Assembly (NCBI GenBank): GCA_000091205.1
Contig: AP006499.2
Length of the DNA: 64,000 bases
Direction: 5' to 3' (one strand)
Origin: Cyanidioschyzon merolae
Taxonomy: Eukaryota
In this document: in pieces, positions 6,215 through 62,400 of the stretch
Position numbering within the stretch: position 1 is the stretch's first letter
Layout: each line of letters starts with the position of its first letter
Notes under the pieces: model-generated
The model's input: the letters and a program-made list of their open reading frames with translations, nothing else
The model's database searches: none
What the model was told of the DNA's origin: nothing
Translations under genes and position numbers: made by a program

Positions 6215-9053
6215 AGCGGCTACGACGAAGCACAAGTTTTCTAGTTTTCGGAAGTAAGCACGTGGATATGGCGCTCCGAGTCTCTGGTGGTGATGTTCGT
6301 TTCAAACGAAAAATGCGGATGAAGATGGATGAAAAAGTGCATGCGCATGCACCGGTCTCTCGGTCGAGAGATCCGGCACCTGCCGCAGCTGCTCTGCCGG
6401 AGAAGCGCACGGCAGTGGTGGTGCTGGCGTCTCTGAAGCGAAACCAAATCAGCAGACGTGAACGGTATGTTGGGCATTGCGTGTCCTACCCAAAGCATGT
6501 GCAACACGTTGCTTGCAACGGAGACGCTACTGGGCCAGTTTTCTTACAGAAACGCTTCGCCGTCGAGCAATGGCCAGCGAATGTAACATTTTCCCTGAAT
6601 CGTTGCGGTTCGTTGAAAATTGCTTGGAAAATCGGTGATGACGGCTGCGGTGCACACGGAACTCCACACAGAAGCACCTGTTCATGTCGTGCCCCTTGGG
6701 GGATATAGCGTGCTCTGGGTCGGCTGAAGACCGGATTTCTACGGCCTGGTTGCTTCTCATCGGGGCTTTCGTCGGCGCACAAGGAACACAGTGGACGAGA
6801 CTTTTGGTACCAGCGTCGTTCACTTCGCTGAACCCTCGGGTCTCGATGCCCTCGCGCAGCGGCGGTACTGATTGACGACATCCATGAGACTGCAGCACGG
6901 ACACGAGGGTGCAATGTATCTCATATGAATACTCATCGGAACCGGTCTTGCATACCAATCTGATACTCATTTCAGAGTAAAAAATGAAATGGACACACTC
7001 ACATAAGTAGAGCGAACACGCTAAATTTTGGGCCTGTTACCACTTTCTGGAACACCAGTTTTGCGGGCTTTCTCTGTGACTGCTTCGTTTTTCGTCGCCC
7101 CAGTCTGAGGCGTTAAATATGCCAGTCTCTAGTGTTGCTCTAGCTTCGATACAAGCAGTCGAAAGATATTGATGACGGCATTCTAGTCCCGATTTGGCAG
7201 TTTCCGGCAGATGTCGAGGCATTTCATGCACAGGTGGAAATAGCGATCTACGCTCCGCTGGCTGTTGTCATCTCCCCAGCATGCAGCTTCAATGCGTCCT
7301 TGGAAGCGTCGACGCTAGGATGTGGTCAGGCATACCCACATGTCCATCGAACCTTCTCGTTTTCCGAGGTTCGGCCCTGTGGCTCGTGAAGGTCCATGTC
7401 ATCGCTCGGCGCTTGCCCTTGGCGGGTACGCAGAGCTCCCCTCGATGCAGTGCTTTGTTTCCGCGTTCCATGCCGTTCCCTGCGACCGTGGACTTTTGGA
7501 AGATCCCCCTGGCGAGTGCTCTGTTCGGCACATGCGGAAGCGCACGCTGTTGCATTCTACAGCGTTTCTTTTTTAAAGCGATTTTGTCGAAGATGAATCT
7601 AGTAGCGGGAGGAAGATCCTGGCCGGATTCGCAGTCGAGAAATCTCGATCTACCTACGTACCTGTCGTGCGAAGCGGTGACACACGCTTCACTGGGAGCG
7701 ATCGCCACGATAACTGAATTCCGAGGCCAACCTCCTTTTTCCATGCAAACAGAAGAGACGGGCGCCCCTTCGGACATATCTTGTGTGGACTACCATGTTA
7801 CTACCGTCGAATACCATGTCGTCGATGGCGAAAAACAGAGAATGTTTTTCTGCTGAACGGGATCGATTTTCTGACGGTGCGAATTTCAATGTGCTTTGGA
7901 TATGAGTTGGTCAACAGGTCCTCAATGGGCGAGGTCGAGCTCTGGACTTCGTCAATCCTGCAGTCCGAACGGATGTACCCAAGAAATCGGGTTGGAGCAA
8001 CATGATCGAAGACTTGAAGAATACGTGATTCTAGCATGCTAGGCGCAGGACAGAAACAAGAGCGGAGGCCTGTACGTGTGCACTGGATATTGGTGTTGGT
8101 GAATTTACGAATCCTTCTTCGAGAGCGTCTAAAATCATCTTGATTCCCGACACAACACGAATTCCACCTGCGATACATCGAATGATCCGCTCTTGAAAAA
8201 CGAGCTAGAATCCGAAACCTACACGTGAATCCGCACGCCGTTATTGCTGCACTTTTAATGTCGAGGCTGTACATCTAAAAGAATGTCCTGAAAGATCTCC
8301 AGGCGGGGACAGATCGCGTCGTTCAGACTTCGATTTGAATCTGACACGAGCGCACATTTGCTAGATATTGGTGTCAGAGATGGATCGTGGATATGTTTCA
8401 GGGCTCTGGGAGATTTTAACCCCAATGTACTCGATGAAAGGCTCTATTCTTTCTTTCAGGCCATGTACAGATGGTGTCTGGAATTCGGCATCGCAGCGAT
8501 TCGAAGTTCCGGTTCACGATAGGGCACGCTCAACAACTAGCGTCCGACGTTGCTAAGGTGAAGACGCCAAAATTACCATGCAAACTTCATGTCGGTGATG
8601 CGCGGAATTCGGGAGCGTTCGCCACGTTGGTTTATTTTGAGCGCAAAACAAAACTTGTGGCAAACACTATACATCTGTGCGTTGAGCCTGTCGACGGCGC
8701 TCTGTTCCGGGAGTCGGGCGTAATGTCAGCACTGGGCTGCAGTGCATCCGGATCCCTTGGTGAACAAAAAGGCATTGTCGGCGAATAGAGGTGAGAGGTG
8801 AAAATTGGCTGGTTCATGTCTTGCGCTTTGAAAATCAGGGCCCGATTCAAGTTCTCTACCACACACGTTCGATGTACATGCTTGCATCCTGATCACAATC
8901 AAATGACCTCTTAATCTATATCCAGTGGAAATTCACGTCTGCATCACAGCGAAAACCCCCCGAGTTTCCGCAGCGTCGCCCCTGCATTCGCCAAATAATA
9001 TTTTCAACGTCCAGTTCGCCAGGAGCGTTCCTCCTCTAACACGCGTGAGATAC

Positions 9054-9858: not shown

Positions 9859-10112
9859 CGCGTGCCCTGATCGTGGCCCTTGGCATGCAGAAACTGTACA
9901 GAAACGGATTTTGCTGCCCAGACATGTCGCGTGCCCTGATCGTGGCCCTTGGCATGCAGAAACTGTACAGAAATTCCTTTTCCTGCCCAGACATGTCGCG
10001 TGCCCTGATCGTGGCCCTTGGCATGCAGAAACTGTACAGAAACGGATTTTCCTGCTCAGACATGTCGCATGCCCTCATCGTGGCCCTTGGCATGCAGAAA
10101 CTGTACAGAAAT
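9859..10112. repeat. 69-bp tandem minisatellite, ~3.7 units
   Basis: Unit cgcgtgccctgatcgtggcccttggcatgcagaaactgtacagaaacggattttgctgcccagacatgt starts at 9859, 9928, 9997 and 10066. It reads as RALIVALGMQKLYRNxFxCPDMS x4 in the ORF track, and sits in the divergent intergenic region between PRA1 (-) and the MBOAT gene (+). Confidence 0.9.
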
Positions 10113-16455: not shown

Positions 16456-17039
16456 GTCGGCATGGTGTTCACGTGGATACGCAGATGCTAGAGCATGGTG
16501 TGCACTGCGGGAACAGGTCATACTTGGAGGTGTCGACGCTTGCAATGCTAGGATCGTTGGTCGTCGCTGTCAATGAGCGATATCCGCGGGACTGCTTGGC
16601 TGGGCGATGTCACCAAGCTTTGATGAAAGTTTTTCCTCGAAGCGAAAATTTTTTATATAAATACACCGGATAAAACCCAAGTGGATCGTGTCTACAACGC
16701 TGCTGCTGGCGCAGACGAGGCAATGCTCTGGCATCAGAGGCCTTAGTATATGACAAGCAGCGGGAAGTAGCGCGGGTTTTCATGGGTACGCTTCACGCCG
16801 GTGGTATCACGAACGATCATCCCCGGCGTCTGTGGGAAGAGATGGATATGGCTGGGCGGCAGAGATGAGCTGCGCGTATCATGATACCCATGGCAGCGTA
16901 AAATGGAATGCCTCACGAGACCAAGTAGACCGTTCAGGTTCAAGTTTGGCGCTCGATCCGATTTCTTCTACAGAACCGTATCTGCCGGCTTTTTGAGTAA
17001 CTGCTTGTTTTTTCTCGTTAAATGCCGACTGCACCCACA

Positions 17040-17290
17040 CACACACCGGGCTCTTCTTTCGCTCCAGTTTCGGGGCGAAAAGTCGAAGGATGTGGATCGG
17101 AGCGTTCAAGTCCCGATTTAGCTACTTTTGGCCGTTGTTTACGCAAATCACACGCAGGTAGAAGCAGCTATCTCCGCTTCGCTTATCATTTCCATCTCGT
17201 TTGTCGACAGTCTCGACGCACTCCGCGCAGCGGTGACATGTAGCTGTTGGCATTGGGTCCTATACGTCTACGAGACCTGCTGCTACGTGC
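17040..17290 (-). mobile_element. TnpB/Fanzor-like relic, subfamily 2 (3'-terminal fragment)
   Basis: Minus-strand reading gives ...TCHRCAECVETVDKRDGNDKRSGDSCFYLRVICVNNGQK*LNRDLNA (CxxC zinc-ribbon remnant plus a RuvC-III-like NRDLNAxIN). The nucleotide sequence is homologous to 31920..32130 (agcgttcaagtcccgattt(a/c)gctactt, gcttcgctt(a/g)(t/c)catttccat..gtt.gtcgac, gcggtgacat). Confidence 0.5.
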
Positions 17291-18399
17291 ACTGCGCCGT
17301 CGCACCTGAACGTTTACTTGATCGAACGGTACATTCTCGTGATGAGTACAGAAGGTTAACCTCTGTGCCTTGCTCCGTTTTCGCGACAGGTGTCGTCAAC
17401 GACGACCACGGGCATCCAGCGGGCTATCCGTTCGGCGCGTACGCTGTCCGCAGCAGGTGCAAGCGCTCACCGTTCCATTCCATAGAGGACTTGAGGAGCG
17501 CGATGCTTTCCAGGATAAAGCAAGTACCTGAAGCAGAATCCAGGCTGAGGAACAAGTCGAGCATTTCGATTTGTCTACGCTCTCTTCCTGCAAAGCAGTG
17601 ATACGTTCGCCGCAAAAAGCGATCGCTGCGCTGACTCAACCCCGAGTTTAAGGTCCATTTCTATGCCAGTAGTAGAGACGACAGCCTCTAGGCGCATATA
17701 CAATGCGAGGTATCATGCTGCTGATGCATTGCATTTCTCTGATGCCTCTCAAGTGAGGGGGATGTTCGTTTCGAACGGAATCGATTGGTTGAAGTAAGAC
17801 GTTTGGTGAATGTTCCGGATGGTCTGGTGGATCATTCGTCAAGGAACGAAACGTCCGGTACGTTTCTTCGTCCGTGGAGCCGTGCGAAGGGCTTCGCCAA
17901 CGATTTCGCTTGAAACACGAAGATCGGGAGCTTGGAAGCCGCGTGCTTTCCGCATACTGTACATAAGGAAAGGAGAAGAGAGCAGGCCTTTGCGTTGGAA
18001 TTCGGTGGTGGTACCACTTATCTTACGTACCGTATTACGAGAGCCCCGCGAATAACGTTGAAGACGGTTGGATAACGAATCCAGTGGCAAAGCGTCGACG
18101 CAGCTACTTCGAAACCTGATTAAGAAACCTACACTACGATTGCATTCCAAAGCACTTATAGTCTCTCATCTCAAATTCGTTTTACCCCCCAGGTGCATGT
18201 CATCAAATTCATTTTCGTGGTTTATAGCAAATATGTTCGAAGTGCTCTCATTTGGAAGAAATAGAAAATCCATGGAAAGGGGCGGACCTGGAAGTCAAGG
18301 ATCCTGCAGGCTCGATGTCGCCGGGTTCAACAGCTTTTGGAAAAAAATCCTCTTCTTGGCAACCATAGAGCGAAGAAGAACAAGTGACGGAGAAGAACA

Positions 18400-18740
18400 A
18401 GAAGGGAGATAGGTGAGAAAATGTATTCGTCCGAAGTGACGATGACGAGACTTTAGTGTCACAGAAGACGCGAGTTCTAGGAATCCTCCTATCGCTGAGT
18501 TCAACCAACGGCAGGAAACGCATTGAGTTCGTGAACCGAGACTTTAATACCGCCATCAATATCAGACGATGTGTGGCGTTGGAGACGAGTCCCGAAGAAC
18601 CAAGGCAATGCAACTTCATGATGCAGCCTCTGACGCTCGTCGTACGACTGGATACACCGAGGCCGATAGCAGGCGGCCGGGGGAAAAAGACTGCGAAGCG
18701 TTTGCGGAACAGTATGTATACACTTACCGTTCAGGATCTT
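18400..18740 (+). mobile_element. TnpB/Fanzor-like relic, subfamily 1 (last ~35 codons plus conserved 3' non-coding module)
   Basis: The plus-strand ORF reads QKTRVLGILLSLSSTNGRKRIEFVNRDFNTAINIRRC (motif at 18528..18569). Downstream ~170 nt (gatagcaggcggccggggg..aaaaagactgcgaagcgtttgcgg..gtatgtatacacttacc) aligns with the 3' regions of the 21.5k, 36.6k and 46.1k copies. Confidence 0.55.
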
Positions 18741-21371: not shown

Positions 21372-21603
21372 ACCTCGAGCCTTCAATCCTATGCAGGTAT
21401 ACGCTGCGTTGCCTGCGTAATGTCGTAGTAACCGTGAAGCTTGTCGTGGAAAAGTGCAGCACCGACAGCGAACGCCTTTCAAAAGAAAAACGCTGCCGCC
21501 GGCAGCGTACAGCCGTGGCGAAAAACCCGCCCTCGACAAGACGTCTCCAGCTGACGTGCAGACGCCTCCCAGACTTTTTTGGACCGGCCACCTACTACTG
21601 GTT

Positions 21604-30708: not shown

Positions 30709-31919
30709 GGTTGCACCTCTGAATCTCAACGATACAAACGAAGGGCGTACAAGAACAGGTGTCAGCGCAGCGGTTTGCTCTAGCGCCTCCAAGCAGCAGC
30801 AGCACGTATGCGGTAACCGCTTCAACCAGCCAGCCAGCAACAAACAAACAAACACTCACGTGCGTTTACCGAAAAACGGTTTGGAGAATGGACGCATACG
30901 GTGCGCGCCGAGCGCTCTCTGTGTCAACAGCGGCAGTATACAGAAACACAGGAGAGCGTCAACCGGCGTTCAGCTTCAATGAACGATATCGCAGTACAGT
31001 GCCAGTGATGTGTCCGATAACATGGTGCTGGCTTGTGCATAGGGTCTCCACTTGACGTCTCCGCTCCTAAGCAGGTCTCGCGCAAAACGCACCGCCTAAC
31101 GTCGTCGAATGCTCTACATGGAGCGTCTGTGGAACAGCGATTCGTGGTGAGCGAAGAAGTGTCCATAGAAATCTGCATTTTGTCTGATAACGGTGCATGC
31201 AGTCTGGTCGTATGTGTGTTGATATAGGCTCCAATGCGTGCCTGAGGTCGTACGGGTAAATACGCGCTGGAAGCTGCGGACGGAATCCAGGTAGCGCTAT
31301 GACAATCGAAGGATCCGCTAGCGAGTGGTCGACGCTGACGGCTCGACGTAGTCGAATCACTGTGCAAGGGCACGGGGCGAGCCCAGGTCGAACTCGCTGA
31401 GACCCAACCAGCTGCGGATGAAAGAGGTGCTCCAAGGAACGCAGCATCAAGGTCAGCGATATGGCAGAAGCGGGAACGCACGCACACACAGTGTGGAACG
31501 AGTGCAGTGCACGATGGATCTGGTATTGCTGTCATCGCTTTTGGTACATGAGTATCACCTGTCGACCGAATGAAGTCCGTAGCGACAGCAAGTGGCGCCT
31601 GGGCGCGGGGAAGGTTGGGCGTTTTCCCGGAAGCGTCGCGAGTCCGCACGAAAGACCCGCTGGTCGACAGTGCACCGACGATAACTGCGTCGACTCGTCA
31701 TGCATGACATGAAGAGAACGACAGCCTCGGTGGTGTCCGTACAACTAGACTACTGCAGAGCGGTGATTTTTGCGGCACGCTAGTCGTACTCGTACGAGAA
31801 TAAAATGGTATGGGCCCAAGCCGAGCGTACACGTTCAAGTATCGGTCTCTTCCGAAGGTCATCAGCAGAAGCCGTTGCGAGCTTTTTCCTGTGACCGCTT
31901 CCTTGCGCTCTGTTCAAAT

Positions 31920-32130
31920 CGCCGGCTATCAATAGGTCTGGAGCTCCAGTCCCTCTGGATCCCTTACCAGCTGTCGAAGCATGTTGATGGAAGCGTTCAA
32001 GTCCCGATTTCGCTACTTCCGGCTGCTGTCAGAGCATGTCATGCATCGGCAAACGCTGCGACCTATGCTTCGCTTGCCATTTCCATGTTGTTTCTGTTCG
32101 ACTTCGATGTACGCGTCAAAGCGGTGACAT
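31920..32130 (-). mobile_element. TnpB/Fanzor-like relic, subfamily 2 (second copy)
   Basis: The minus strand reads RCHRFDAYIEVEQKQHGNGKRSIGRSVCRCMTCSDSSRK*RNRDLNASINMLRQ. The stop sits at the same codon position as in the 17.1k copy, and the nucleotides are homologous to 17040..17290. Confidence 0.5.
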
Positions 32131-33978
32131 CTGGTTATCTTGCGGTGTTCTCCTGTGTCCGCAACGCCGGCTTCACGGGGCTACTTCCTTGTGGTGCCTG
32201 AACGCTTACCTCATTGCCCGCTAGATGCGCTTGACGGATGCAGAGACGCTCGTCCATATCCGAATCCGTTTCTGCGCCCGGGGATGCAGCGCCCGATCAG
32301 ACGTGCTTTTCCAGGTTATCCACTTGGTGCGTAGTTGGTCCCCTGTATGCGTATGCGAACGTTGCGTCATCCGACAGAGGATTTGCGGATCGCGATATTG
32401 TCCATGATGAAACCAGTACCGCGTCCGAAATCGGAGCCCGACGATCAGCTCGTCACATTCCCATCGGTATACGCCCCGTCGTGCACAGCAGTGATGCTCT
32501 CGCTATCGCAAGCAGTCGCTGCGATGACTAGATTCCGAGTGAAAGATGCTATTCCAAGTCAACAGAAGAGAACAGAGACGATCGTGCATATCCCGTGAGA
32601 GGTATTGTGCTGGTGTCGGATGCCGTTTCGTCTAAGGTCACATGGAGAGGAGGATTTGTATTCCGCAGTTGTCGATTGCTTGACGTGACACGTTCATTGA
32701 ACTTTAAACAAGAACTTGTGAACAAGTGCTCTAGCGACGACATTGAGCTGTTTTCTTCATCGATCCAGTGGCACGAATAGCGGCGCCTGCGACTTGCCTT
32801 GGTTGATCAAAAACGTGCAGCATGCGCAAACCATACATGCAGCACGTAAGGAATTCAGAAGATCAAAGGCTTCTATCTATGAATTTGTTGATGATATCGA
32901 TTATTTTACGAAGCCTTTTTCGAAGGTGTCTCGATTCGCCCTGATGTTGAGTACGTAACGAGTCCATGCGGCAACGAGTCGACGCAGTCACTCCACAGAA
33001 ACAGCCGAGAATCTTAAAAGGACCTTTGAATCCGTTGTCTCTCTCTTTGCTACAGTTCGATTCTTAAACCTGAAAATCTACAATCATTTTGGAAAGAATC
33101 GCCAGGCTAAAGCAGCACGAGCAGATACGCATCCACCCGACGCCTTTGGTACTTGGGCGTTTGGACGCGCGTGCGCTGCGCTTCAGCAGGCGAGGGACCA
33201 GATCCGAGAGCACCAAGAGCGTTACGGTGCTAGGTGGCCCTGGCTGGTGCTCTTTAAAGTGACGCAGGTGTTCAGGGGGTTCATAGGCTCGTGCGAAACA
33301 CTCGAGTCCATAGGCGCGAGCAGCCGTGCTCCACTTGGTTGTGGACGACTGGTTGAACTTGGGCACCTGTGCCTTGGCTTTGCGCGGCAGAGAGGCTCGA
33401 TCTTTACGTCGACCCTGCACACGGAACCTCACATCGCTTGGAGCTGGGAGAGGCACGCGAAATCCTGTTTCGTGTAGCTGAGCGACTTTTTCGTCTTCTT
33501 AAGCGGTGTATGAACTTTTGGAAAACCTCGGCACCGGCGTAGGGGTACGACCTGGAAAGCGCGGCGTTATTTTGGAGGTGGAGGCGAAGGGCATCGAGCG
33601 GAGACGGCCCCGACTGAGGAGGCAACCGTGCACGCCCGGGCTTCTGTGTATCGGTGCAGCTGCTGCTTAGACGCCTTCTTGCTGACGGCTGATCTGCCTG
33701 TGGCACGGAGCTCGAGCTTCAGTGCGTAACACAGGCAGCGTCGGGTGCTCTCGTTGGCACGACTTGTCTGCGGACGCACGTAGTGCGTATTTTCTTGCAT
33801 CTCTCGGGACGAACCCGTATCTGTATTGCAGAACTGCAAAAGCTTGCTCCTGGAAACAGCGCTGTCTGTACTGCAGCAACAGATCACTCGGGTGGAGGCG
33901 TCTTTAGGTAGAGATCCAGCACTACTAGTGCGCACGCTGGGTGCACCGGAACCTTCTGCATCCTTCGAGCTGCACTCC

Positions 33979-36469: not shown

Positions 36470-36900
36470 CTTGCTTATGCATCTGTTGGATATGCGATCC
36501 GTAAAACAGAAAATGCGCCACGACCATGGCGGGTACGTTTCCATATACCCACGCGCAGACGCGTCCCAGCATTTTTGACTGGCTGCCTGCTATCGGTATC
36601 GGATTATCCAGGTAAACGTGGTGCTTGAGACGCTGCCCCACAAAGTTAGCTCGCGTTAGCTCCTTGGGTATCTCGTCAGTTGCACCGGAAATCGTCTGAT
36701 ACTGATATCGACGTTGAACTCTCGATTCACGAACTCCTTGCGTCCGTTGTCGCTGGTGGAACGCACCAGTGCAACGATCCCCGGAACGCGAGCCCTCTGG
36801 GTCACAACAGTCTCGTCGTCATCCCGTCGCGGAAACCCCGCGTCTCGTCTATCTTTCCTCTTTCTTTTGTCGTATGTTCTTCTGTGCTCGATGATTGACA
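36470..36900 (-). mobile_element. TnpB/Fanzor-like relic, subfamily 1
   Basis: The minus ORF 36656..36946 reads ...VVTQRARVPGIVALVRSTSDNGRKEFVNREFNVDISIRRF (motif 36692..36736), aligning residue-for-residue with the 18.5k and 46.2k copies. The downstream ~230 nt (gatagcaggcagccagtcaaaaatgctgggacgcgtctgcgcgtgggtatatggaaacgtacccgccatggtcgtgg) is conserved at the nucleotide level with 46.1k, 21.5k and 18.6k. Confidence 0.55.
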
Positions 36901-46019: not shown

Positions 46020-46330
46020 GTCAGGAAAACGAACACTGTTCCACGGCCATGGAAGGTATCTATACACCCACGCACGGATGCCTGCCAGCCGTTTTGTTTC
46101 GACCGGCCGCCTGCGATCAGTTTTGTTTTATCAGGGGACAGTGCGAGCCTGAGAGACAGCCCAAGAAAGTCGGTTCTCATCAACAGCGCCTATCGTCGGA
46201 TATTGATAGTGGCATTGAAGTCCCGATTCACAAAGTCCATTCGTGCGGTTCCGCTGGTGGAACGCACGAGTACCAGGATTGCGAGAACTCTTGTCCTCAG
46301 TGCCGTTTAGTGCTCTGCTCGCTCTTCGTA
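46020..46330 (-). mobile_element. TnpB/Fanzor-like relic, subfamily 1
   Basis: The minus strand reads *TALRTRVLAILVLVRSTSGTARMDFVNRDFNATINIRR* (motif ~46198..46240; an upstream in-frame stop limits the coding part to ~45 aa). The downstream sequence (gatcgcaggcggccggtcgaaacaaaacggctggcaggcatccgtgcgtgggtgtatagataccttccatggccgtgg) is homologous to the 36.5k copy. It lies ~550 bp upstream of the MAPK start. Confidence 0.55.
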
Positions 46331-47648
46331 CTTTTTTATCGCCGAAGCGTTCGGCCGGCTTTGCTCCATCTCGACGTTCTCAAATGTTCAATACAGCGCA
46401 ACCTCTGCACTTCCTATTTTTGAAACTGAAAGCACTCTTTCTTATGCCATTGTTTGAAGACCTTGCCGGAGAGAGAGGCACGAGCGCAAGAAAGACGACA
46501 TATGTCCGAGTGTGTCGCCATGTGCTGAACGCTTCACCAATTCGCCCAGTGCAGCGATTATAACGTTTCACGATAGAAACCACGTCTTCGATTGGCATGA
46601 ACCAGGAAGCGTATGGAGGAATGATACGCGGCTCTACCCCTGATAGAATCGGAAACAGCTCGAATGCAAGGGGAATGTTATAACGCCACCTTATCTAGTA
46701 GAAGGACGTCGTCGGACGTCAGGGAGAGGTCTTCAGTGATTCGATAAAGTGATTTGTGCTGCAGTATGAGCCTTCTCTACGAGCGAGACTTAGGCTGGCA
46801 AATGAATCCACTGCAGATAGAACAGATGATGATGTCGTCGTTCCCTTTGAGCTCGATCTTGCATGCAACCGGTGTCCTGCTCCTCGAATACCCATACACG
46901 CTCCGTCTGTCTCGTTTGAAGCAAGTCACATCGACTGGAAAAAAACAAACCGATGTTCCTCTTCTTCATGTCGATCGCTGCGTTCCAGGAAAGCTGTGGC
47001 AGTTTCGATTTCGATGGAAGATGGCCGTGCGTGAACTAGGACTTTTTTGCGACTGTATATTCGTGTTTCCATGATTACACGAACGAGCTCTTGAGAAACA
47101 GAGACGCCCGCAGTAAATAGAATCGACGCTTTTGTTTTCCGTAAGGTGTTCAACGGGTCGTTTCTACACCATTGACCGCAAGAAGTCTTTCAGAGTATCG
47201 GCATTTGATGCGGAGCGCGTGTACTCTTTTCTATGAACATTCCTCAGTCATCAGGGTACTGTGCAACGACTGACCTGAAGGAGGAATGCCATCCTCCATG
47301 CACTGCTCAGTCAAGTATATATATCCTAAAGGCAATTCGTCTACGATCTATGCTGTACATTGCATCGATCTTTCGATCTCTCGCGCTGTACTGCGAAAAA
47401 AGCATTCGATCACATGCGGCGATGACGGAATAAAATAGAACTGAACGACCAGAAAAGGCACTTTTCACGCGACTCCGAACTAGCAGGTAAAGCGTGCCGG
47501 TACGCCTGCGCAGCCGATTGGCGCTCGAATTCCTTGCCGCTGCGCAGCACTGCGTCTGAGTAGGTCGTTGTGCTGCAAGGCTGCGGCCTTTCTCGAGGGT
47601 GTGCTGCAGAAACCGCCTTGACGGTGGCTAGGGGCGACAGGACCGTGT

Positions 47649-48596: not shown

Positions 48597-51113
48597 AGAC
48601 GTGACCGCACGGTATACCTGCACTTTCAGAACTGGGCATGTGCATGCGTCTTGACGACCCAGGGCGAGAAACTGCAACAACGACGCCAGATACAGCAGGC
48701 AGCAGCGGCTCGAGCGAGTGCGTCTCGCGATACCATTTGCGAAGCGACCGGCATGCTGGAACGACCACAAAGACGCGCGGGACGCAGCGTGATCGTACCT
48801 GTATCTATCGCTAGTGGTTGCAGCACTACGTAGCGAGATCCGATGCACTCATCGAGAACACGTCATCGTGGAGAGAAATGCGCACAGAGACTATCGCTGC
48901 ATCATTTTCGGGTGCAGCATTGCGACGCACCGAGGAAAACCGATCACGCGAGCATACCGTGAAGCGGGATAGATGTTTCCGCGAAGAAAAGTTTTTTCCA
49001 CAGTCTAAAATAGGGCCTTTTTGCATCATTCCTGGACGTTCAAATGGAAACACCAAGCATTGATTGCCCTTGACGTATTCGCCGGGCCAGATGGTTCCTG
49101 TTCCAGCTGCTCTGAGCATGAAGAATGCGGAACGTGCACGCTGCATTCCACGAGTTGCTGCGCCGCAGTAGCACGCGTTTGCGCGGTCCCGATTACAGTC
49201 CGCAAAGGTTCAGGTTTTTGGTTTCAAGCTGGCGACAGTTCGTATGTGCAGGAGGGATTGGGGATCCATCTAGACTGCCAATAGAAAAGCGCGAGTCGAA
49301 AGCAGCGTTCATGTACGGCGCTCAACTCTGCAGATCCGCTTTGCAAGGAAGCGATCGGACGGTTGCACGCGACGTCGCATGCGTTTCGATACACCCGCCT
49401 AACGCGTTACCGGGCAAGAGACACCACGGAAACCCGGCTAATATACACGATGTGTCGATAAAGACACATGCTTCATGCAGCCTGCTGGTCTGCTGGACTG
49501 CAACGCCGCCACCCGTGAAGTGTATTGAACGCGCGGAAGCGTCGAGGCAGCTGCATTGGAGCGGAGATCGAGACCCTGGGAACCGGCTCTGGAAGCGGAA
49601 ATTCCGGTTTACCCGTGTCAGAATAAAAAATAGAACGAGTCGCGTTCGCCAGCCGAGGCATACGTTCTAAAGTCTGGGACTCTTCGCATGAACGCCAGCG
49701 CCAGCCTCCACGGGATTTTTTTGCGTATGTTTTGTTTGCTTGTCTCGGAACTATAACTCTGTTTTCAGCTGCCAGGCGATGTGCACGGCGACGTAAATGT
49801 TCCTATTTCGTCGCTTTCGGGGGTTGTCGACGCATTTCATGCTCAGGTAAAAGTTGTAATCTCCGCTTTGCCAGCCATTTTCCTTCTCTTTAGATACAGG
49901 ATCGGTGTGCCCTGCGCAGCTGTGGCACTTGACTAACGGCACGTGCTCCGATACATTCAATGCATCTTCTCGCGAGAGCGCCGAACTCTGCCGCGTGAAC
50001 GCTTGCTTCTTCGCTCGGCACATGCCCTTGACAAGGACAGAACTTTCACCCTGATGCTGTTCTCCGCTTCTGCGCCCAGGATCGTACCATGCGATCAGGG
50101 GCTCCTTCAGGGAGCTCGCCCCGGAGAGCACGCCGGCTGCTCCTTATGCGAGCGCATGCAGTTCCATTCGAAAGAGAGTTTCTGAAAGGCGAGGCTCTCC
50201 GTGATGAAGCAAGTATTGTAAGGAAAAATCAGGCTGGAGATCGTCTCTAGAAATTCCGATCCGTCTGTGATCCCTCTTTGCGGAAAGCGTTGACGAAGTC
50301 TCCATCGGAAGCGATCGCCTCTGTGGCTCAAGTCCGAATCCAAGACTCTTTTCCATGAAAGAAGACACGGGAACTTCTGGGACCATACCTTGTGAATTGT
50401 ATCATGGTACAGTGGAGTCCCGTTTCACCAGTTACCATGACGAGAGGAGGATTTATCTCTCGAACGCAGTCTGTGATTCAGCGAGACAAGTTCAGTGAAT
50501 GTTCGGCATGAGATTGTGAACAATGCCCCCAAAGAGTGAAGTCGAGCAGTTTCCTCGTCAATCGAGCGGGCGAATGATTATGGTCACGAGATGTCCTGGA
50601 GCATGAAGATCGATAAGATAAGGCAAGCTTGATTTGTGTATTTTACATATAAGGGAAGGAGAAGGATGGATGCTTTTTCATATGCATTGGATAATACTGT
50701 CGGTTGTTTTACCAGTGCTTGTTCGAGCGCGTTACGAATCATCCCGATTCCGGTGACGCAACGAATGCCAGTGGCAGACAATATTGCAGGTGCCACTTCG
50801 AAACGACGACCGAGGATCCGAAAACTACCTATGGATCCGTAAGCGCATTGTGCTGCGCTTCGAACGCCTACCAAGCGCATCAAAAAAATTCGTACGGAAA
50901 TCGAAAACCAGGAAACGATTGCCCAGTTCACTTTACCACTTGAAGCTGACACCAACGTAGATGCATAGATCCAAAACTCTACGTCAACTCGCCGACGCCC
51001 CTAGAGCGATTGTGATCATCATCAGGTCGAGTGGTGCGCGATGTGCGCTCGCTTTTGCTAGAATGGCACCAGATGCATTCGGGGTGTACGGAACGCGAAC
51101 AAGACTGCTTTAT

Positions 51114-53100: not shown

Positions 53101-53185
53101 GGTAGTATAGCTCAGTCGGTTAGAGCGTGCGGCTGTTAAGACAGTAGAAACCGCAAGGTCGAGAGTTCAAGCCTCTCTACTACCG
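53101..53185 (+). tRNA. tRNA-Asn (anticodon GTT) with 11-nt intron after the anticodon loop
   Basis: Manual fold: acceptor GGTAGTA/TACTACC (7 bp), U8, D-arm GCTC-AGTCGGTTA-GAGC, anticodon stem TGCGG/CCGCA with loop CTGTTAA (identical to the canonical Asn loop), ~11 extra nt (gacagtagaaa) between loop and 3' stem, variable AGGTC, T-arm GAGAG-TTCAAGC-CTCTC, discriminator G. A T6 run at 53191 serves as the Pol III terminator. Confidence 0.8.
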
Positions 53186-54619: not shown

Positions 54620-55999
54620 TCAAAGAATATTCACATACTCGCGAAGCATCGCGGTCAAACTTGGATGACGCAACTTTCGCAGAGCTCGTGACTCAATCAG
54701 GCGAATCGTGTGAACTGGTAACTTGAACCTTGCACTGAGTTCCTCCGCGGAGTGCGGACGTTCGTCATCCGAAATGCCGTACCTCAAACGAAGAATCTCG
54801 CGTTCCTGGAACGGAAGGGTGCGCAACACGCACTCGACATCTTCACGCATACAGCTCCGCTCCAGAGCCTCCTCGGGTGTCTCCTCTGTGGCCTCTATGA
54901 CGCTGCCAATGGAGAGCGGCGCCTCTCCCTGCTGTGCCTTGTAGAGACTCTGGGCCTCAGTGCTTGGTGGCCCCTCTAGACTAAGGGTCTGCGTTTCCCA
55001 GGCGTGTTGCGTGATCTTCTTCAGACGTTTCAGTGTCATATTGCATGCCTCAGCGACTTCCTCGTCCGTTGGTGGTCTCTTCAAAACGTGTTGCAAGCGG
55101 GCCCTCGTCCGATAAATCTGTCGCAATGATTCAGTCACATGATTGGGTAAGCGGATCGTGCGTGAGTGCTCAGACACACACCGCTGGATTGCCTGCCTGA
55201 TCCACCAAGTCGCGTAGGTTGAGAACTTGAAACCTTTGGAGGGATCGAACTTCTCCGCCGCGCGGATGAGGCCAATGGCTCCCTCCTGAATGAGATCGCC
55301 GAGAAAAATGTTATGCTGCCTCTGAAGTCGCACTCGTTCATGAGCGGGCACCTCTATTCCGCTCTTCGTCTTGGACCGCCAGGCAGAGCGCACTACTGCC
55401 CGAGACTTGTAACGATTGGCTATTGCTAGAACTAAACGCAAGTTTGCTGCGACAAGACGTTCACGCGCCCTCCGTCCACGTTCCACCCGCTGCTGGATTT
55501 CCTCTTCGGGCGCATCAACTGCAGCCGCCCACTCTGCGTTTGTAGGCTCACGCCCCAGGGTGTTCCGGAGCTCGTCACGTTGTTTCAACAGCGCGCAGTA
55601 GTCCTGCGTGGCTCGCGACAAACGCGCAACCTCCTCGTCAGAGATGCGGTCCAACTTACAGATCTCTCGGACATAGGCCGTGGCTGCACAGGTCGTCGTG
55701 TGATTCGTTCGACGTCGAGGCTTCTTCGCCGCGCTCGTCGGCTCCTCTAGCTCGTCAACTTCGACCTTCTCAAGATCTTCTTCTTGAGCAAGCACCTTGT
55801 TCTCGTCCTTGATAACAGGAACATTTGGCACCGAAACCAACGTCGACAACGAGCGCAGCGACTCCGGCAAGGACCCCAGCGGGGTAACCTTCATGTGCGG
55901 GGTCATCACTGCGTGGCCCCGCGCAACCCGCGAAACGGGACAGACCCGCGCAGCAACCTGCCGCTTAAGACTCGAGACGCGTGCCCAACTGAGAAACAT
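54620..55999 (-). CDS. sigma-70-family RNA polymerase sigma factor (nuclear-encoded plastid SIG) with N-terminal transit-like extension
   Basis: Region 2 ([40 protein letters not shown]), region 3, and region 4 ([50 protein letters not shown]). There is a true ATG at 55999; the first ~60 aa are R/S/V-rich. Confidence 0.85.
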
Positions 56000-56437
56000 A
56001 GAGAGGGATACAAAGCAGTCTCCTCGTGAAACGAGGTGTCAGCTGCGTAACCAGGAAGAAACAGGTCCTGCTTGAGCACAGGTCACCGCAACGAGAGTAC
56101 AAAGAACGTTGGCTGAAACCCGCCGCGTGTAGGGCGTGTGCTCGCCCCCGATCTCAACGACGGCGGGGCAACGCAGTGACCTCAGGGCGCGCGCGCGCAC
56201 GCCCCAGGGCGTGGCTGGAGAGCTCGACCGCGGGTGTGGACCCCCGCCGGGGTGCACGCGCCCGAATCCCAGATCAGGGCGGTTGGTTAAGCGGGTGCAC
56301 GCTCGGCGCAGCGCGTCGGGATGCTGCCGTCTGAGTCTTAAAACTGGAATTTATTGGATATTTTGGTCGTGCGTCGGCTTCAGCAGGCGCCGGCGGCCGC
56401 GGCACACCTCAACCATCCCAGATACGGCATCGTGAGC

Positions 56438-57433
56438 GCGCGTCCGATAAAGGTGGAATCCTGAGATGTTCGCTTTGTTCTTGGCTTGCGATTTACGTTA
56501 CGAACGATTCCCAGAGGTACAGCGCCAGCATTCGGATCGCAGCAATAGGGGATGACGGATTCATACGTAGTTTCAGGATGATCGGTCATCGTTTCGAAAT
56601 GGCTCTTTCGAATCTCTTTCAGAGGGAACACGCAACGATACCACACTGAGGATGATCCTCGATGCCCTCGAACAACGGCTCCTAAAATAACCGATCTCAT
56701 CATCCAATGCATACGTACAAGCCTCCACGCCTCTCTTTTCCTCAGGTGCAGCACGATCGAATCACCCATGCCTCAAGGTATCGATCCGTAGGTTATGAGC
56801 GCAATCGTAGGCGCACCAATTTGGACTGCTGCATTACCATGGGGAAACAGTATTCGACATCGCTTCCCTAGGGCTGGCCTGTGACCTCGTTGCGGACGTT
56901 CGCTGAATTTGGCACGTTCAATAGTCGATTCGATTCGATTCGATTCGAATCGAATGACAAATCCGGCTCCATCTGCGGCTATCGACGAAACGGCAATCGA
57001 CTGCAGCACGGGAGGTGCCACGGGGTATGGGCTGCGGGGCTCCCGTGCCTTGCGTTTGCATGGAAATGATCATTGGGTCGGTCTCGGATCGTCCGTTGCG
57101 TTGGCATCCAGCGGATACTGCGTCACTGCGGTGCACGGAAAGCGGGTGCCTGGGTCGATATGTACGGACCTGATCTCCAGCCTGGATTTTCATCCTGGTA
57201 CGTGTTTCTTCCTGATGAACATCGCGTGCCGCAGACCCTCGTCTCGTCGCGAAACAGCGAAGAACAGAGGCTGAATACGATAGAGAAGAAGAAGACAAGC
57301 GAAGCGTAGATCGCAACGACCGCTTGTGCTTGCAATGGATGCACAGCAGCTGGAAGCCGCGTCATTGCGTCGATAACGCTGCTATCAACAATCCTTCGAC
57401 TGCTCAAGATGGAGTTGGTGCAAAAAGGGAGAC
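56438..57433. repeat. ~995-bp direct repeat, copy A (>98% identical to copy B)
   Basis: From cgcgtccgataaaggtggaatcctgagatgttcgc... to ...ctcaagatggagttgg. It contains a (CGATT)n/(GATTC)n microsatellite at ~56925-56960 (more units than copy B) and a 129-aa minus ORF duplicated in copy B. Confidence 0.9.
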
Positions 57434-57860
57434 CAGCAGATTGAAAGCCGGAGATTCGAGCGAGGAAAAGGACGGAGTTCCAGATAAAGCACGCAAATGC
57501 TTGTGTTGATCACTGAAAAAGAAAGCGACTCACACCCTATAGTCTCCATCCGTTTTTAGGGAGTTGATCGGTTCGGTTTTCTGTCTGACATGGGTGCAAA
57601 ACCCCAAATATGTGACCTATGCGTTTTGAAAAGCCGACATACTTCACGGCCTCCTGCGGTGTGCAACTGCAGCTGCAGCACCTGCGGCTCGGTATCGCAA
57701 GCGGCATTCTACTCAGAGGCCGCCATGTAACGCGTCGCGGTGCGTCCAGCCGGTGGGCGGTGTCCTGGCTGAGTCGCAGCGCCGGGCGTAGCTGACGTCG
57801 AGTGCGAGCCTGGTGGTAGCCAGCGACTTCCTCCGTACCAGCACGAGGCACTGACAGGTC

Positions 57861-58853
57861 ATGTTCGTGGCACTCGGACCTGCCAAACTAGGCCTTGACC
57901 GGCGGCTTGGAGCCCCTCGAGTTTCAAACCGGTTGAGGACGTTAAGGCTGTCGTTCGCGGAACGCGTGGAGCGCAGCTTGCGGAGAAAGTTTCCTGCCGA
58001 CTCGGTCGCCCGTGTAATCCAAGCTTGGCGACAAATTCAAAGAGGCGAGATGCTTCGCGAGGATCAGAGGGAGGCACATAGCTATATTCGAGGACTTCGC
58101 ACTGCCAGGTTTTTTGATAACGCCGAGTTTCCCTGGGCGGCTGCTCTCGAGAGGAACTGGGAGACCATCCGCGACGAACTGCGGCACTGGGAAACGCGAC
58201 GCCAGGAGCTCGAGGCGCTTGGCTCGCAAGTTTGGGTTACTGCAGCTCGAGCGGAGGCCGTTGCCTATGGCCCGGACTGGCGCACCCTGGTTCTGCAGGA
58301 TAGACGCTGGCATGACGACAACTGCAAGCTCTTCACCAAAACGACAAGAATTATTCGGGATTGCGGTGTGCCGTCAGTCGAGGCTTTTTTTGCCAGGCAA
58401 GCACCCCAGAGCGGCATCAAGCTTCATTCTGACGGATGCAACTTTATTTTGACAGCGCATTTGGCACTTCAGGCACCGCCACGACAGTCATGGATTGCAG
58501 TTGGCGGCGAGCGCCGTTTCTGGGAAGACGGGAAGGTGCTCATTTTCGATACCAGCTATCTCCATGAAACATATAACGAGAGTCAAGACTCTGATCGGTA
58601 CGTTCTTTTGTTGCGTTTCTGGCATCCTGAAACAACTAGAGTAGAGCGCGAGGCCTTGCAGTACATTTTTGACGTGGTCGACAACCCGTCGTGGGTCGAT
58701 CGAGACCTGAATGATCTGGGAGCAGGTCTCGATTCCTCGCTCGTAGAAGATTGGATACAGCGTCCGAATAGGAAGGCGCGGCGTGGCACCGGCGGCAAAG
58801 ACCGCAAGGACCGCACGTTAAATCCGCCCAGGGGTTTCGGTCGCTCGGAATGA
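57861..58853 (+). CDS. aspartyl/asparaginyl beta-hydroxylase-like (2OG-Fe(II) oxygenase, AspH/Asp_Arg_Hydrox family) protein
   Basis: FFDNAEFPWAAALERNWETIRDEL, RRWHDDNC and KLHSDGCNFILTAHLALQAPP resemble the conserved AspH catalytic-domain motifs (Fe-binding His in HSD...H). There is a true ATG at 57861. Confidence 0.65.
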   Translation: MFVALGPAKLGLDRRLGAPRVSNRLRTLRLSFAERVERSLRRKFPADSVARVIQAWRQIQRGEMLREDQREAHSYIRGLRTARFFDNAEFPWAAALERNWETIRDELRHWETRRQELEALGSQVWVTAARAEAVAYGPDWRTLVLQDRRWHDDNCKLFTKTTRIIRDCGVPSVEAFFARQAPQSGIKLHSDGCNFILTAHLALQAPPRQSWIAVGGERRFWEDGKVLIFDTSYLHETYNESQDSDRYVLLLRFWHPETTRVEREALQYIFDVVDNPSWVDRDLNDLGAGLDSSLVEDWIQRPNRKARRGTGGKDRKDRTLNPPRGFGRSE

Positions 58854-59755
58854 TGATGCCTTGGCTTCTCCGAGGCTGTGCCATTCAAGCGCTTGCGCGT
58901 TCGCGATCGACATTGGGTGCTCTTAGAATTTTCCAAGACATATTGTTTCTGAACTTGGCGTGCACAGAGGGTCAGCCTGGTGATTTCCAAACGTAACGTG
59001 GTTTCGCACGGGGAGTACTGCTCGACGAGCACGTCCCGCGAGGACTAGCGAGACACGCGACGACGCCAAAGGTGTATTACCGCTCCCAGTCTGGATTGCT
59101 TTTCGTGGATAGCCCAGAGCTTTACCCGGGAGCAAAGGACAACAAAAGAGCAGCGTACATGCCTGTATTAGCATCACTCGATCATGTGGCACAGGAGCCG
59201 GTTCAACTGCTAGCAACATGCGTTCACTCAAGGAAACATTCGACTGTAAACGAAAGCAGCAAGCTGTTTTGAGTCTCTTCTCGAATGCGGCAACATGGCG
59301 CTTAGCATTCAGTATTCCCTTTTCCAGGATGTCGAGCTATGGTTTCAGCGTCTGTGCATCTTGTGTTGCATATTAGCTGACATCGATGCGAGTCGTAAGA
59401 GCAAGTTGCAGAACAGCTACAAGCTCTGTTCACGAACAGGTCCATGTGTGGCGCTGGGCAAGCTCATTCGCGGGATTTTGATCAGCACTAGAGCGACAGC
59501 GATCTCAGGGTTGTGCAGTACATCACTTTCGCATGATCGACTTGATTGAATGTCAGCTTCGAGCGGCACGTTTTCAGTAATGGCTTCCAAGGGCATCTTC
59601 TGGAGCCCGGCTTCAGTGCATGATGCGCCACCTTTTCACTCTCGTGTGCAGGGCGTGCTGTGGGAAAATACATTGTACGGAAATCGATTGATTTGCGATG
59701 TAATCATGGCTCCGTGATGGTTCCAGCTGGCACCACCAGCTCATTCCGCAATACC

Positions 59756-60745
59756 CGCGTCCGATAAAGGTGGAATCCTGAGATGTTCGCTTTGCTCTTG
59801 GCTTGCGATTTACGTTACGAACGATTCCCAGAGGTACAGCGCCAGCATTCGGATCGCAGCAATAGGGGATGACGGATTCATACGTAGTTTCAGGATGATC
59901 GGTCATCGTTTCGAAATGGCTCTTTCGAATCTCTTTCAGAGGGAACACGCAACGATACCACACTGAGGATGATCCTCGATGACCTCGAATAACGGCTCCT
60001 AAAATAACCGATCTCATCATCCAATGCATACGTACAAGCCTCCACGCCTCTCTTTTCCTCAGGTGCAGCACGATCGAATCACCCATGCCTCAAGGTATCG
60101 ATCCGTAGGTTATGAGCGCAATCGTAGGCGCACCAATTTGGACTGCTGCATTGCCATGGGGAAACAGTATTCGACATCGCTTCCCTAGGGCTGGCCTGCG
60201 ACCTCGTTGCGGACGTTCGCTGAATTTGGCACGTTCAATAGTCGATTCGATTCGATTCGATTCGAATGACAAATCCGGCTCCATCTGCGGCTATCGACGA
60301 AACGGCAATCGACTGCAGCACGGGAGGTGCCACGGGGTATGCGCTGCGGGGCTCCCGTGCCTTGCGTTTGCATGGAAATGATCATTGGGTCGGTCTCGGA
60401 TCGTCCGTTGCGTTGGCATCCAGCGGATACTGCGTCACTGCGGTGCACGGAAAGCGGGTGCCTGGGTCGATATGTACGGACCTGATCTCCAGCCTGGATT
60501 TTCATCCTGGTACGTGTTTCTTCCTAATGAACATCGCGTGCCGCAGACCCTCGTCTCGTCGCGAAACAGCGAAGTACAGAGGCTGAAGACGATAGAGAAG
60601 AAGAAGACAAGCGAAGCGTAGATCGCAACGACCGCTTGTGCTTGCAATGGATGCACAGCAGCTGGAAGCCGCGTCATTTCGTCGATAACGCTGCTATCAA
60701 CAATCCTTCGACTGCTCAAGATGGAGTTGGAGCGAAAAGAGAGAC
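59756..60745. repeat. ~990-bp direct repeat, copy B
   Basis: Collinear with 56438..57433 with a handful of substitutions and a shorter (GATTC)n array (~60240-60265). The flanks outside the repeats are unrelated. Confidence 0.9.
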
Positions 60746-62124
60746 TTGCGTATCAAGAGCCGGCGATAAGTCGTAGGAGAAAGATGCATTCGCAGGAAAA
60801 CCAGCAAACGCTGGTCTTCATAGCGCTTGGAGTAGACCGAAACTTGTGAATATATGCTCCCGCTCGAAACGCGGACCTGGTTCTTTTTTATTTTGGAGTG
60901 GGTGTAGAACCATGTCAAGATAAGAGTATCTGCGATCAAGTCACGCTGGCGCTCGCTCTTCGATATTCGCAGGCGGAGGCCTTGGCGGCTGCTATCAGAA
61001 TGCCATCCATAACCGGGTCGAGCTCCGTTTTCCCTGTTTCCGAGCATTTCCGCCTATTGTAACACTTTAAAGTCAGTTGATCATCTGAGGCACGAGTTGT
61101 CAAACCATTGGTTCAAAGATCAGCCCCGACCGAAGCGGGCCTGCTCAGCATCTCTGGCAGGCTCATAGCCCTTTGGGCGCTCCGGTAGCCGCTCGAGATG
61201 TAGAGATTCAGCACCAAGTCACCGGGACGTCGTTCAGCGCATATTCTGGTGCCCCGAACAGCGGTTTTTGCCGCGTGATATCGCGGAAACGAGGCAAAAC
61301 TTCCCGAATGCGCAAGCGGGAATCGCAACCTGCTAAAGACCGAAGTTACTCACCAGGTGTGATAACATTCCCCGCAAATCCAATATCAAGTTCTATGCTC
61401 GAATAAAGGCCTCATCGATCCAGCAAGCCACCAGAACCGAGCGCTACTGGTGGTGCACCCTGCGACGTCGGATGCGTCGCCGCCGCGGTACCATTACCGA
61501 GATGGAACCGCGTTGCAGTCCGTAATCGGTCATCGGTTCGAGGTCGTCTAGCCAGCGATTGCATAGTGTCTGTTCACGGTTTAGAGTTACGACGATTCGT
61601 TGACGAGGCGCGCAGCCCATGTTGCCGCTTCTGTGCATGCATCGACCCAGCTCAAGATTGACTCCGGGGACACCCTGCATAGACTCGGAAGGCGAAAATT
61701 CATACCTACGCTTTGGAGACGAATGCACAGTCGGAGACAATTCGAGACAGGCACGCGCACTCTCCGCCGCATGAAAGCTACCAAGCGGCTCGCTTGTGTC
61801 CGAGCCTAACGTCGTGCGAGAAGACGGTGCAGTGTACCTGGCCAACACCACGCCATCATTTCAGCTATGGGTAGCTCGCTTTAAATCTGCATGATTTGGG
61901 CATCGTATACGCCACCAGTCTCGAGCAGTACACACCAGGGATGATAGAGCGCCTCATGATCTGACAGAATGATTAGCAACATCGCGGATGCACGCTGCAG
62001 AAGACCATGCGATCGACAGCTGCGAGGCCGTCCTCGGTACGCATCGATTGTGCACCGACACGCTGCCCAGACGCACGGAATCGCGGTAGCCCAGCAACGT
62101 GCATCTTCAAACTATATCTTTCTG

Positions 62125-62400
62125 AACTTTATGGTTAAAATATCCAACAATATACCCCAAATGCTCGCGGACAGCGTTCGCAGAGGCAATACCCGATGAA
62201 CAGAAATATCACTAAAATATACTTTCCTCCACCTTATGGGAAAGAGTGTACCAACATTCCGACTCGATATGCGCGCGGACAGCGTCCCCCGGAGGCGATT
62301 CCCGATGAACAGGTACATCACAAAAATATACATTCCAGAACTTTATGGAAAAGTATACCCAGAATTGGACTCCAAATGCGCGCGCAATCGATCCAGCGGG
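62125..62400. repeat. ~108-bp tandem repeat, ~2.6 units
   Basis: Units begin ctttatgg..aaa at ~62125, ~62233 and ~62341. The shared core is gcgcggacagcgt.c.c.gaggc.at.cccgatgaaca....atcac.aaaatata. It sits ~400 bp upstream of the CHD gene ATG. Confidence 0.8.

Follow-up and report, generated by a model that had tools for sequence, protein, structure and literature searches.

In a stretch of 64,000 nucleotides of nuclear DNA from the red alga Cyanidioschyzon merolae 10D (contig AP006499.2, hereafter the window), the gene for an Asp/Asn beta-hydroxylase-like protein (AspH) is flanked by two nearly identical direct repeats of about 1 kb, A and B. These repeats belong to a family of six dispersed copies (family 1, copies A to F), and they are most probably two old neighbouring insertions, now dead, of a TnpB/Fanzor1-type DNA element, the block of near identity being a gene-conversion tract between them. 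An earlier note on this DNA, made from the sequence alone, had read the arrangement as a gene cassette resembling a long terminal repeat (LTR) element that had captured a host gene; the transposable-element origin is retained here, the LTR type is not.

Two near-identical direct repeats flank AspH

Using repeat search, pairwise alignment and BLAST, we found that repeat A (56437-57433) and repeat B (59756-60745) are 98.2% identical over 995 bp in direct orientation, which confirms the near-identical repeats described before. The two cores differ by 13 substitutions and one 5-bp indel, and the strict core in identical register spans 56439-57418 in A and 59756-60730 in B. The indel is located in a pentanucleotide array that reads (GATTC)4-GAATC-GAATG in A and (GATTC)4-GAATG in B, in agreement with the earlier remark that the repeats differ in (GATTC)n copy number, and a third allele with one additional unit is present in the metagenome contig L001. 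At least three core haplotypes circulate in C. merolae-like metagenome populations. Short-read C. merolae-like metagenome contigs (L001-L006 and L013-L018) stop at the borders of repeat A or a little way within them.

A simple recent local duplication, or an assembly artefact, by which ~1 kb of A was copied 3.3 kb downstream, would account for near identity that is confined to the 995-bp block and for the breaks of short-read metagenome contigs at its borders. However, the 10D genome is a finished, telomere-to-telomere Sanger sequence (PMC1955436) in which A and B differ at the 13 sites and the indel given above, and both repeats are present in the independent metagenome assemblies L010 and L011 (99.3% identical to the window over 16-18 kb). 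The A/B structure is thus genuine and not an assembly artefact.

Six decayed copies of one family

With repeat A as the nhmmer query we detected four more copies in the window (C to F), all on the minus strand, and a family profile built from the six copies gave exactly six matches. The earlier note had proposed a search for copies beyond A and B and had counted a complete lack of them against its proposal, a situation that does not arise here. Copies C-F are ~1.4 kb long, and sliding self-comparison showed that A and B reach ~180 bp past the near-identical block; members of the family measure ~1.2-1.4 kb. Both A and B lack family-model positions 801-1047, a deletion of ~250 bp that is absent from C-F. 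Apart from this deletion all six copies are full length, and all are intergenic (Table 1).

Independent copies show pairwise identities of 54-59%, and each is ~25% diverged from the consensus. No reading frame is conserved or open in any frame across the copies; all six align with a 359-aa conceptual consensus protein, carrying stops and frameshifts. In tblastn with this protein, copy A yields a high-scoring segment pair (HSP) of 207 aa with stops, copy B yields HSPs with stops and frameshifts, and copy F yields one of 349 aa with several stops. The HSPs of copy E include ...RNRDLNASINMLRQL and those of copy D include ...CLTTS*RRR...NRD*NAVINIFRLL, and the best-preserved C-terminal frame of the family is that of copy C (...KCHSCAG...MKCVDNPRKRRNRN...). 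Pairwise differences per codon position are 0.42, 0.44 and 0.41, and divergence is uniform along the element, with no conserved island. The flat codon-position profile indicates that divergence accumulated without coding constraint after an amplification burst. A model of diverged masters, in which coding constraint would lie behind the divergence, is ruled out by the same profile. All six copies are neutrally decayed pseudogenes.

The earlier note had also drawn attention to a minus-strand open reading frame (ORF) of 129-157 aa in each repeat. These two ORFs exist, but no ORF inside A or B, on either strand and including these two, has a Pfam match, and their frame is interrupted by stops in all four diverged copies (C-F). 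They are the opposite strand of the decayed Fanzor reading frame described below and are best treated as spurious.

We also considered that the copies may have been co-opted as functional non-coding sequence (promoter, insulator, long non-coding RNA or omega-RNA-like), with selection keeping their length and the likeness of A and B. All copies are full length, bar the deletion of A and B, despite ~45% pairwise divergence, all are intergenic, copy A fills the divergent promoter region between a sigma-factor gene and AspH, and the related 'WSV repeats' of C. merolae have been reported to be transcribed (PMC1955436). Against this, divergence is as uniform over the element as over codon positions, with no island standing out, and a search of the whole window against Rfam at gathering thresholds gave no match in the repeats and only one tRNA. 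Nor do the copies keep a uniform orientation to the genes beside them, as they occur in convergent, divergent and tandem spacers alike, and in relatives the syntenic spacers gave no match to the elements. We therefore regard co-option as highly improbable.

A predicted Fanzor1/TnpB-type origin

On the strand of A and B, the profile consensus of family 1 reads ...VVDVWEHLPIAKCHRCAG...NFCLCMKCVDSSRKQRNRDLNAAINILRLLETELERQERLAY*. The restored C-terminus (...VVDVWEHLPIAKCHRCAGCIE...NFCLCMKCVDSSRKQRNRDLNAAINILRLLETELERQERLAY*) contains a C4 zinc ribbon (CxxC...CxxC) followed by RDLNAAINI, and RD.NAA.NI after a zinc ribbon is the RuvC-III motif of TnpB/Fanzor proteins. HMM-HMM comparison (hhalign) of the family-1 translations with four published Fanzor1 sequences (PUl-1, CRe, CMe-1 and one more, from the supplement of Bao & Jurka, PMC3627910) gave a probability of 96.0% and an E-value of 4.2e-9 over 128 columns.

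In a protein database the consensus found a single relative, the intact 610-aa protein P0151 (E 2.4e-22, 39% identity over the C-terminal third), and scanning metagenome contigs with a consensus peptide yielded no confirmed relative. P0151 in turn has nine relatives, none of them in IMG/VR, and six of the ten family members match PF07282 (best E 5e-6; P0151 itself E 0.0016), which is also the highest-ranking Pfam match of P0151 and of these six. The Fanzor-type RuvC-I motif GLDPGR is kept in one of them (P0160). P0151 matches the Pythium Fanzor1 protein PUl-1 with an E-value of 5.5e-6, and in profile-profile comparison its family matches the Fanzor1 set with 98.8% probability (E 5.8e-17). Among PDB entries, a C-terminal profile gave one weak TnpB-type match with the same motif (9j09_A, 'Transposase', E 0.032), and sequence searches with the consensus and with the P0151-family profile gave only noise.

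We also inspected the consensus for the Fanzor1 motif D-X(125,275)-[TS][TS]-X-X-C4 zinc finger-X(5,50)-RD (Bao & Jurka 2013). The consensus has a D in AIDET, a zinc finger (CHRC...CLCMKC) ~164 residues further on and RD nine residues later; the N-terminal D is a putative RuvC-I residue that cannot be confirmed as such. Copies A and B have lost the RD motif through decay and read HCVDNAAIN there. Taken together, these similarities indicate that the six copies probably derive from a Fanzor1/TnpB-type element. They would not be functional nuclease members, since stops and frameshifts are present in all six.

The P0151 protein is encoded on gene-dense metagenome contigs (L019-L023) of up to 58 kb that also carry an RNA polymerase Rpb2 gene. 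The other ORFs of these contigs are almost all without a Pfam match, and GC content swings between 47% and 61%; the contigs may come from a giant virus or from a eukaryote.

A probable gene-conversion tract between A and B

In the core columns of the family alignment A and B are 99% identical, against 54-59% for all other pairs, whereas in the 3' tail their identity is 51%, against 43-58% in other pairs. Sliding A-B identity is 97-100% inside the core and falls beyond 57411 to 68%, 60% and 38% within ~150 bp. Each tail is nevertheless recognisable as family sequence. Taken alone, the tail of A matches a profile built only from C-F at model positions 1223-1377 (E 2.4e-9) and the tail of B does so at 1220-1379 (E 1.6e-11), both in register with the point where the core stops. 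The outer flanks, called unrelated in the earlier note, are therefore not fully so, since to the right of the core homology runs ~180 bp further at family-level divergence. The left edge of the identity tract is the 5' end of the element, where homology stops, and the 250-bp deletion lies inside the tract. Diverged in-register tails beside an identical core point to a homology-dependent process, namely gene conversion, and it is probable that the identity block is a conversion tract between two old neighbouring insertions of Fanzor origin.

A and B would have arisen as separate ancient insertions of a ~1.4-kb TnpB/Fanzor1-type DNA element, in like orientation and 3.3 kb apart, in the two spacers that flank AspH. 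After one amplification burst, each copy would have diverged neutrally from the consensus by ~25%. Non-allelic gene conversion by homologous recombination would have overwritten one neighbour with the other, presumably beginning while the copies were similar enough to recombine. The tract would extend from the 5' end of the element to ~190 bp short of its 3' end and would have carried the 250-bp internal deletion along, and the last ~180 bp of each copy would have escaped conversion and gone on diverging.

Variants within the core were compared between 10D and strains represented by metagenome assemblies. No position in the core separates all A copies from all B copies, whereas outside the core the A/B differences are fixed in every strain aligned. 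Certain bases are specific to a strain and present in both of its copies: in 10D, A and B both have c at 56629 (t in other strains) and g at 56895 (a in other strains), and in L001 and L003 both have c at 57282. The copies of L001 and L003 still differ at 57346 and 57415, which argues that they were not collapsed during assembly. Multi-site haplotypes carried at A in one strain recur at B in others. This suggests that conversion between A and B has been repeated or is ongoing, for which the strain-specific bases are good, not conclusive evidence. The earlier note had offered recent formation or ongoing homogenisation of a recombination-prone structure, and homogenisation gains support from both the conversion tract and these shared bases.

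The register of the tails also bears on two other explanations. The block lies exactly in register inside an older family member, as expected of a product of homologous recombination and not of a random duplication, and together with the presence of both repeats in independent assemblies this makes a local duplication or artefact extremely unlikely. Alternatively, a young subfamily with the internal deletion could have transposed twice, recently and independently, to give A and B beside or within the 3' ends of older copies; the 250-bp deletion common to A and B and missing from C-F is what a young subfamily would be expected to show. However, the window holds no third such member, and at both sites the core joins the 'old' tail in perfect register with the family model, an outcome that insertions would be very unlikely to produce. 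Moreover, the frame is dead, no intact source copy is present in the window, and the protein search gave only P0151. Two young insertions are accordingly an improbable explanation.

Several observations weigh against a converted pair of Fanzor-derived elements. The termini, the terminal inverted repeats (TIRs) and the target-site duplications of family-1 elements could not be defined, and near both ends of the consensus there is only a weak common heptamer, TGTCAGA, that is not conserved across copies. PF07282 (OrfB zinc ribbon / Cas12f1-like TNB) is the top Pfam match of the consensus, with an E-value of 0.016 and 15.8 bits, below the curated cut-off of 26.3. The [TS][TS] pair of the Fanzor1 motif is degenerate (PI in the consensus; TT in copy D and P0151). 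The Fanzor assignment draws on the C-terminal ~130 residues, and no relative was detected for the N-terminal two thirds of the consensus. An AlphaFold2 model of P0151 from a 10-sequence alignment was too poor for use (mean predicted local distance difference test 54.5, predicted template modelling score 0.30). As for conversion, the signal of concerted change comes in part from metagenome assemblies, which can collapse or mis-phase repeats, and A and B are identical within L010 and within L011. At the ~55% identity now left among the other copies homologous recombination could not begin, so that the model needs either early and continued conversion or a single homeologous repair event, neither of which was directly observed. 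In favour of conversion, efficient homologous recombination and gene conversion have been shown experimentally in C. merolae (PMC3764038).

AspH as a resident host gene and the LTR reading

The AspH ORF between the repeats is intact, as the earlier note had stated, and encodes a protein annotated in C. merolae 10D as 'similar to aspartyl beta-hydroxylase' (BAM82108). The chorismate mutase gene of the window is likewise an exact match to a 10D protein (BAM82105); both genes, like that of the sigma factor, are located on a chromosome of 1,232,258 bp. The gene order chorismate mutase, ADSL, sigma factor, AspH and CHD helicase is kept in Cyanidiococcus yangmingshanensis (L007) and in a second relative (L008), whose AspH orthologs in the like gene order are 71-72% identical, and homologs of AspH occur widely among red algae and also outside them. 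The family-1 profile gave no match at the syntenic loci of L007 or L008. The spacers of Cyanidiococcus (L007) measure 583 bp between the sigma-factor gene and AspH (1862 bp in the window), 1902 bp between AspH and the CHD helicase gene (~3965 bp in the window) and 936 bp between the chorismate mutase and ADSL genes (2518 bp in the window). Since it is syntenic in relatives that lack the elements, AspH is a resident host gene, and the capture proposed in the earlier note is not upheld.

These data bear directly on the earlier proposal of an LTR-type retroelement, be it an LTR retrotransposon, a terminal-repeat retrotransposon in miniature (TRIM) or a large retrotransposon derivative (LARD), in which AspH would have been captured, with A and B as the LTRs and their identity dating from the insertion. 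Two same-orientation repeats of ~1 kb with >98% identity that bracket 2.3 kb do suggest such an element. However, none of the features for which the earlier note had proposed to look (TG..CA ends, a target-site duplication, a primer-binding site and a polypurine tract) was found. The strict core begins with CGCGCGTCC (CGCG) and finishes with GGAGTTGG (TTGG), and the 5 bp outside the cores differ, being GTGAG and AGCGA (...CGTGAG to the left of A, AGCGAA... to the right of the B core). There is no TGG-type primer-binding site within 50 nt after the A core and no polypurine tract, the 39 nt before B being 44% purine. A-B homology continues past the core at low identity, which shows that the identity block is not a unit with ends of its own. 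Identity stops inside the elements, and each copy goes on into its own diverged family-homologous tail, which is impossible for real LTRs. In addition, a decayed TnpB/Fanzor frame runs through the repeats themselves, relatives have AspH in synteny but no repeats beside it, and C. merolae has been reported to be without any LTR retrotransposons (PMC1955436). The missing hallmarks, the in-register diverged tails and the synteny of AspH together rule out an LTR cassette with a captured gene, and the likelihood we leave to this explanation is practically nil.

Family 1 and the Fanzor element known in C. merolae

Nozaki et al. (2007) described an interspersed element of 3.2 kb, present in 253 copies, whose truncated ORF resembles WSV486 of white spot syndrome virus (WSSV) (PMC1955436), and Bao & Jurka (2013) described the C. 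merolae Fanzor1 element CMe-1A, of 3169 bp and ~150 copies, and reported Fanzor1 also in WSSV (PMC3627910). Combined, the two reports point to CMe-1A and the 'WSV486 repeat' being one and the same element. Bao & Jurka give a single Fanzor family for C. merolae (PMC3627910). A later EDTA annotation of C. merolae lists 1755 transposable elements, of which 40% are unclassified, and this set may well include family 1, unnamed.

We found no DNA match between CMe-1A and the family-1 consensus or profile with nhmmer in both directions, even at an E-value of 10, and the proteins are alike only in their last ~80-130 residues (E 7e-5 and 8e-4). Given the absence of DNA similarity and the restriction of protein similarity to the C-terminal region, family 1 appears to be a separate, fully decayed Fanzor-type family, distinct from CMe-1A.

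CMe-1A itself is represented in the window by one full-length copy and four fragments (Table 1). In the full-length copy (21473-24559) the ORF is in at least two pieces (22425-23315 and 21838-22536), and the motifs ...IPVDEFRTSHTHH... and ...NRDFNAAINIRR... are still readable. The fragment at 18149-18761 is internally deleted, with consensus positions 778-1015 joined to 2803-3131, and adjoins copy F, and that at 13899-14201 consists of the 5' 300 bp only, as described for TE-N2_CMe. The first ~100 nt of the family-1 model also match, inverted and marginally (E 6.6e-4), positions 18761-18847, in the 3' region of a CMe-1A fragment; the two families might have related termini, or the match may be due to chance, and it was not relied on.

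Family 1 makes up 12.5% of the window and CMe-1A 9.8%, together 22% of the 64 kb; the repeat content reported for the whole C. merolae genome is ~6%. It is conceivable, although we hold it to be doubtful, that family 1 is a second C. merolae Fanzor-type family hitherto unrecognised as such; dead RNA-guided-nuclease transposons would then be the main intergenic filler.

Other features of the window

A tRNA gene at 53101-53185 (+; 60.9 bits in Rfam) is labelled 'tRNA-Stop, anticodon tta' by ARAGORN. Inspected by eye, its anticodon loop reads CTGTTAA and is followed by an insert of ~12 nt, and the gene is most likely a tRNA-Asn(GUU) with an intron at the canonical position and not a suppressor. 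Two tandem repeats were detected, one at 9858-10111 (69-bp unit, 3.7 copies, 93% match) and one at 62157-62384 (109-bp unit, 2.1 copies, 77% match), just upstream of the CHD helicase gene. Positions 61-689 show weak DNA similarity (E 7e-15) to 44648-45276, which lies in a protein-kinase gene (43774-45477), and the two may be kinase paralogs.

Table 1. Family-1 copies, their parts, neighbouring genes and CMe-1A sequences in the window
Feature	Coordinates	Strand	Remarks
Copy A of family 1	56437..57614	+	Divergent spacer between sigma-factor gene and AspH; profile model 2-800 at 56440-57261, 1048-1391 at 57263-57608
Core of A	56437..57433	+	98.2% identical to B; read as a probable gene-conversion tract
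Pentanucleotide array in A core	56927..56956	+	GAATC unit missing from B; unit number strain-variable
Unconverted 3' tail of A	57434..57614	+	After the stop of the decayed ORF, up to the element 3' end
Antisense ORF, 129 aa	56380..56769	-	In A; counterpart in B at 59613-60086, 157 aa
Copy B of family 1	59754..60922	+	Spacer between AspH and CHD-type helicase gene; profile model 2-800 at 59757-60573, 1048-1392 at 60575-60917
Core of B	59754..60745	+	Partner of A in the probable conversion tract
Unconverted 3' tail of B	60746..60922	+	Own family-level sequence
Copy C of family 1	49588..50953	-	Full length; spacer between chorismate mutase and ADSL genes; profile model 2-1381, score 1186
Copy D of family 1	6947..8348	-	Full length; profile model 2-1395
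Copy E of family 1	31768..33151	-	Full length; profile model 6-1390
Copy F of family 1	16870..18259	-	Full length; adjoins CMe-1A fragment; profile model 4-1385
AspH, Asp/Asn beta-hydroxylase-like gene	57861..58853	+	PF05118 Asp_Arg_Hydrox, E 3e-37; exact match to BAM82108
Plastid RNA polymerase sigma factor gene	54620..55999	-	Pfam Sigma70 r2, r3, r4; exact match to BAM82107
CMe-1A, full-length copy	21473-24559	-	Consensus positions 4-3169
CMe-1A, fragments	18149-18761, 36510-38415, 46066-46403, 13899-14201		CMe-1A consensus mapped on the window

Implications and comparison with known systems

The A/B locus is what would ordinarily be expected where two dead Fanzor-type copies are close neighbours and homologous recombination is active, and will not surprise specialists of transposons or recombination. 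Its analysis removes a tempting wrong reading, that of an LTR element with a captured host gene, from a genome said to lack LTR elements, and provides, for a red alga, a clean natural case in which dispersed repeats have probably undergone gene conversion. It would also mean that C. merolae, a model alga whose genome is frequently described as nearly free of transposons, has a second, older Fanzor/TnpB-derived family; Fanzor-derived DNA amounts to about one fifth of the window, against the ~6% repeats behind its reputation as the simplest, transposon-poor genome. If a second family is indeed present, pairs of close copies like A and B would serve as natural reporters for active ectopic recombination, which can delete or duplicate host genes such as AspH. 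With 1-kb direct repeats on both sides of a single-copy gene in a host that recombines efficiently, AspH is a candidate for spontaneous pop-out deletion. The locus will also break short-read assemblies.

LTR retrotransposons, TRIMs and LARDs resemble the A/B locus in that two long, near-identical repeats of the same orientation bracket a few kb. Every defining feature of LTR elements that was tested is absent from A and B, and the identity of A and B would come from recombination between separate elements, whereas that of LTRs comes from reverse transcription.

CMe-1A and family 1 share their host, are dispersed, intergenic and TIR-less, and are built round a Fanzor1 gene. Both are old, with a star-like pattern and ~20-25% divergence from the consensus, and both have the RuvC-III C-terminus ..NRDxNAAINI..RLAY (E 7e-5). 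CMe-1A is longer (3.2 kb as against ~1.4 kb), and some of its copies have intact ORFs, whereas the family-1 copies of the window are all pseudogenes. With bacterial TnpB (the OrfB of IS200/IS605 and IS607) and the Cas12f TNB domain (PF07282), family 1 has in common the zinc ribbon and RuvC-III motif (CxxC...CxxC...RD.NAA.NI). In contrast to bacterial TnpB, its overall similarity and its G.G...KG..P.K segment are of the eukaryotic Fanzor1 type, and it has no TnpA partner.

Ectopic gene conversion homogenises neighbouring dispersed repeats such as the Ty and delta elements of yeast, duplicated genes, and segmental duplications in many eukaryotes. As in these cases, A and B show a sharp-edged, near-identical tract within diverged paralogs, limited on one side by the extent of homology, and share strain-specific variants. 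They differ in being, as we interpret them, dead transposons in a very compact and supposedly repeat-poor algal genome, and in forming direct repeats that expose a single-copy host gene to pop-out deletion.

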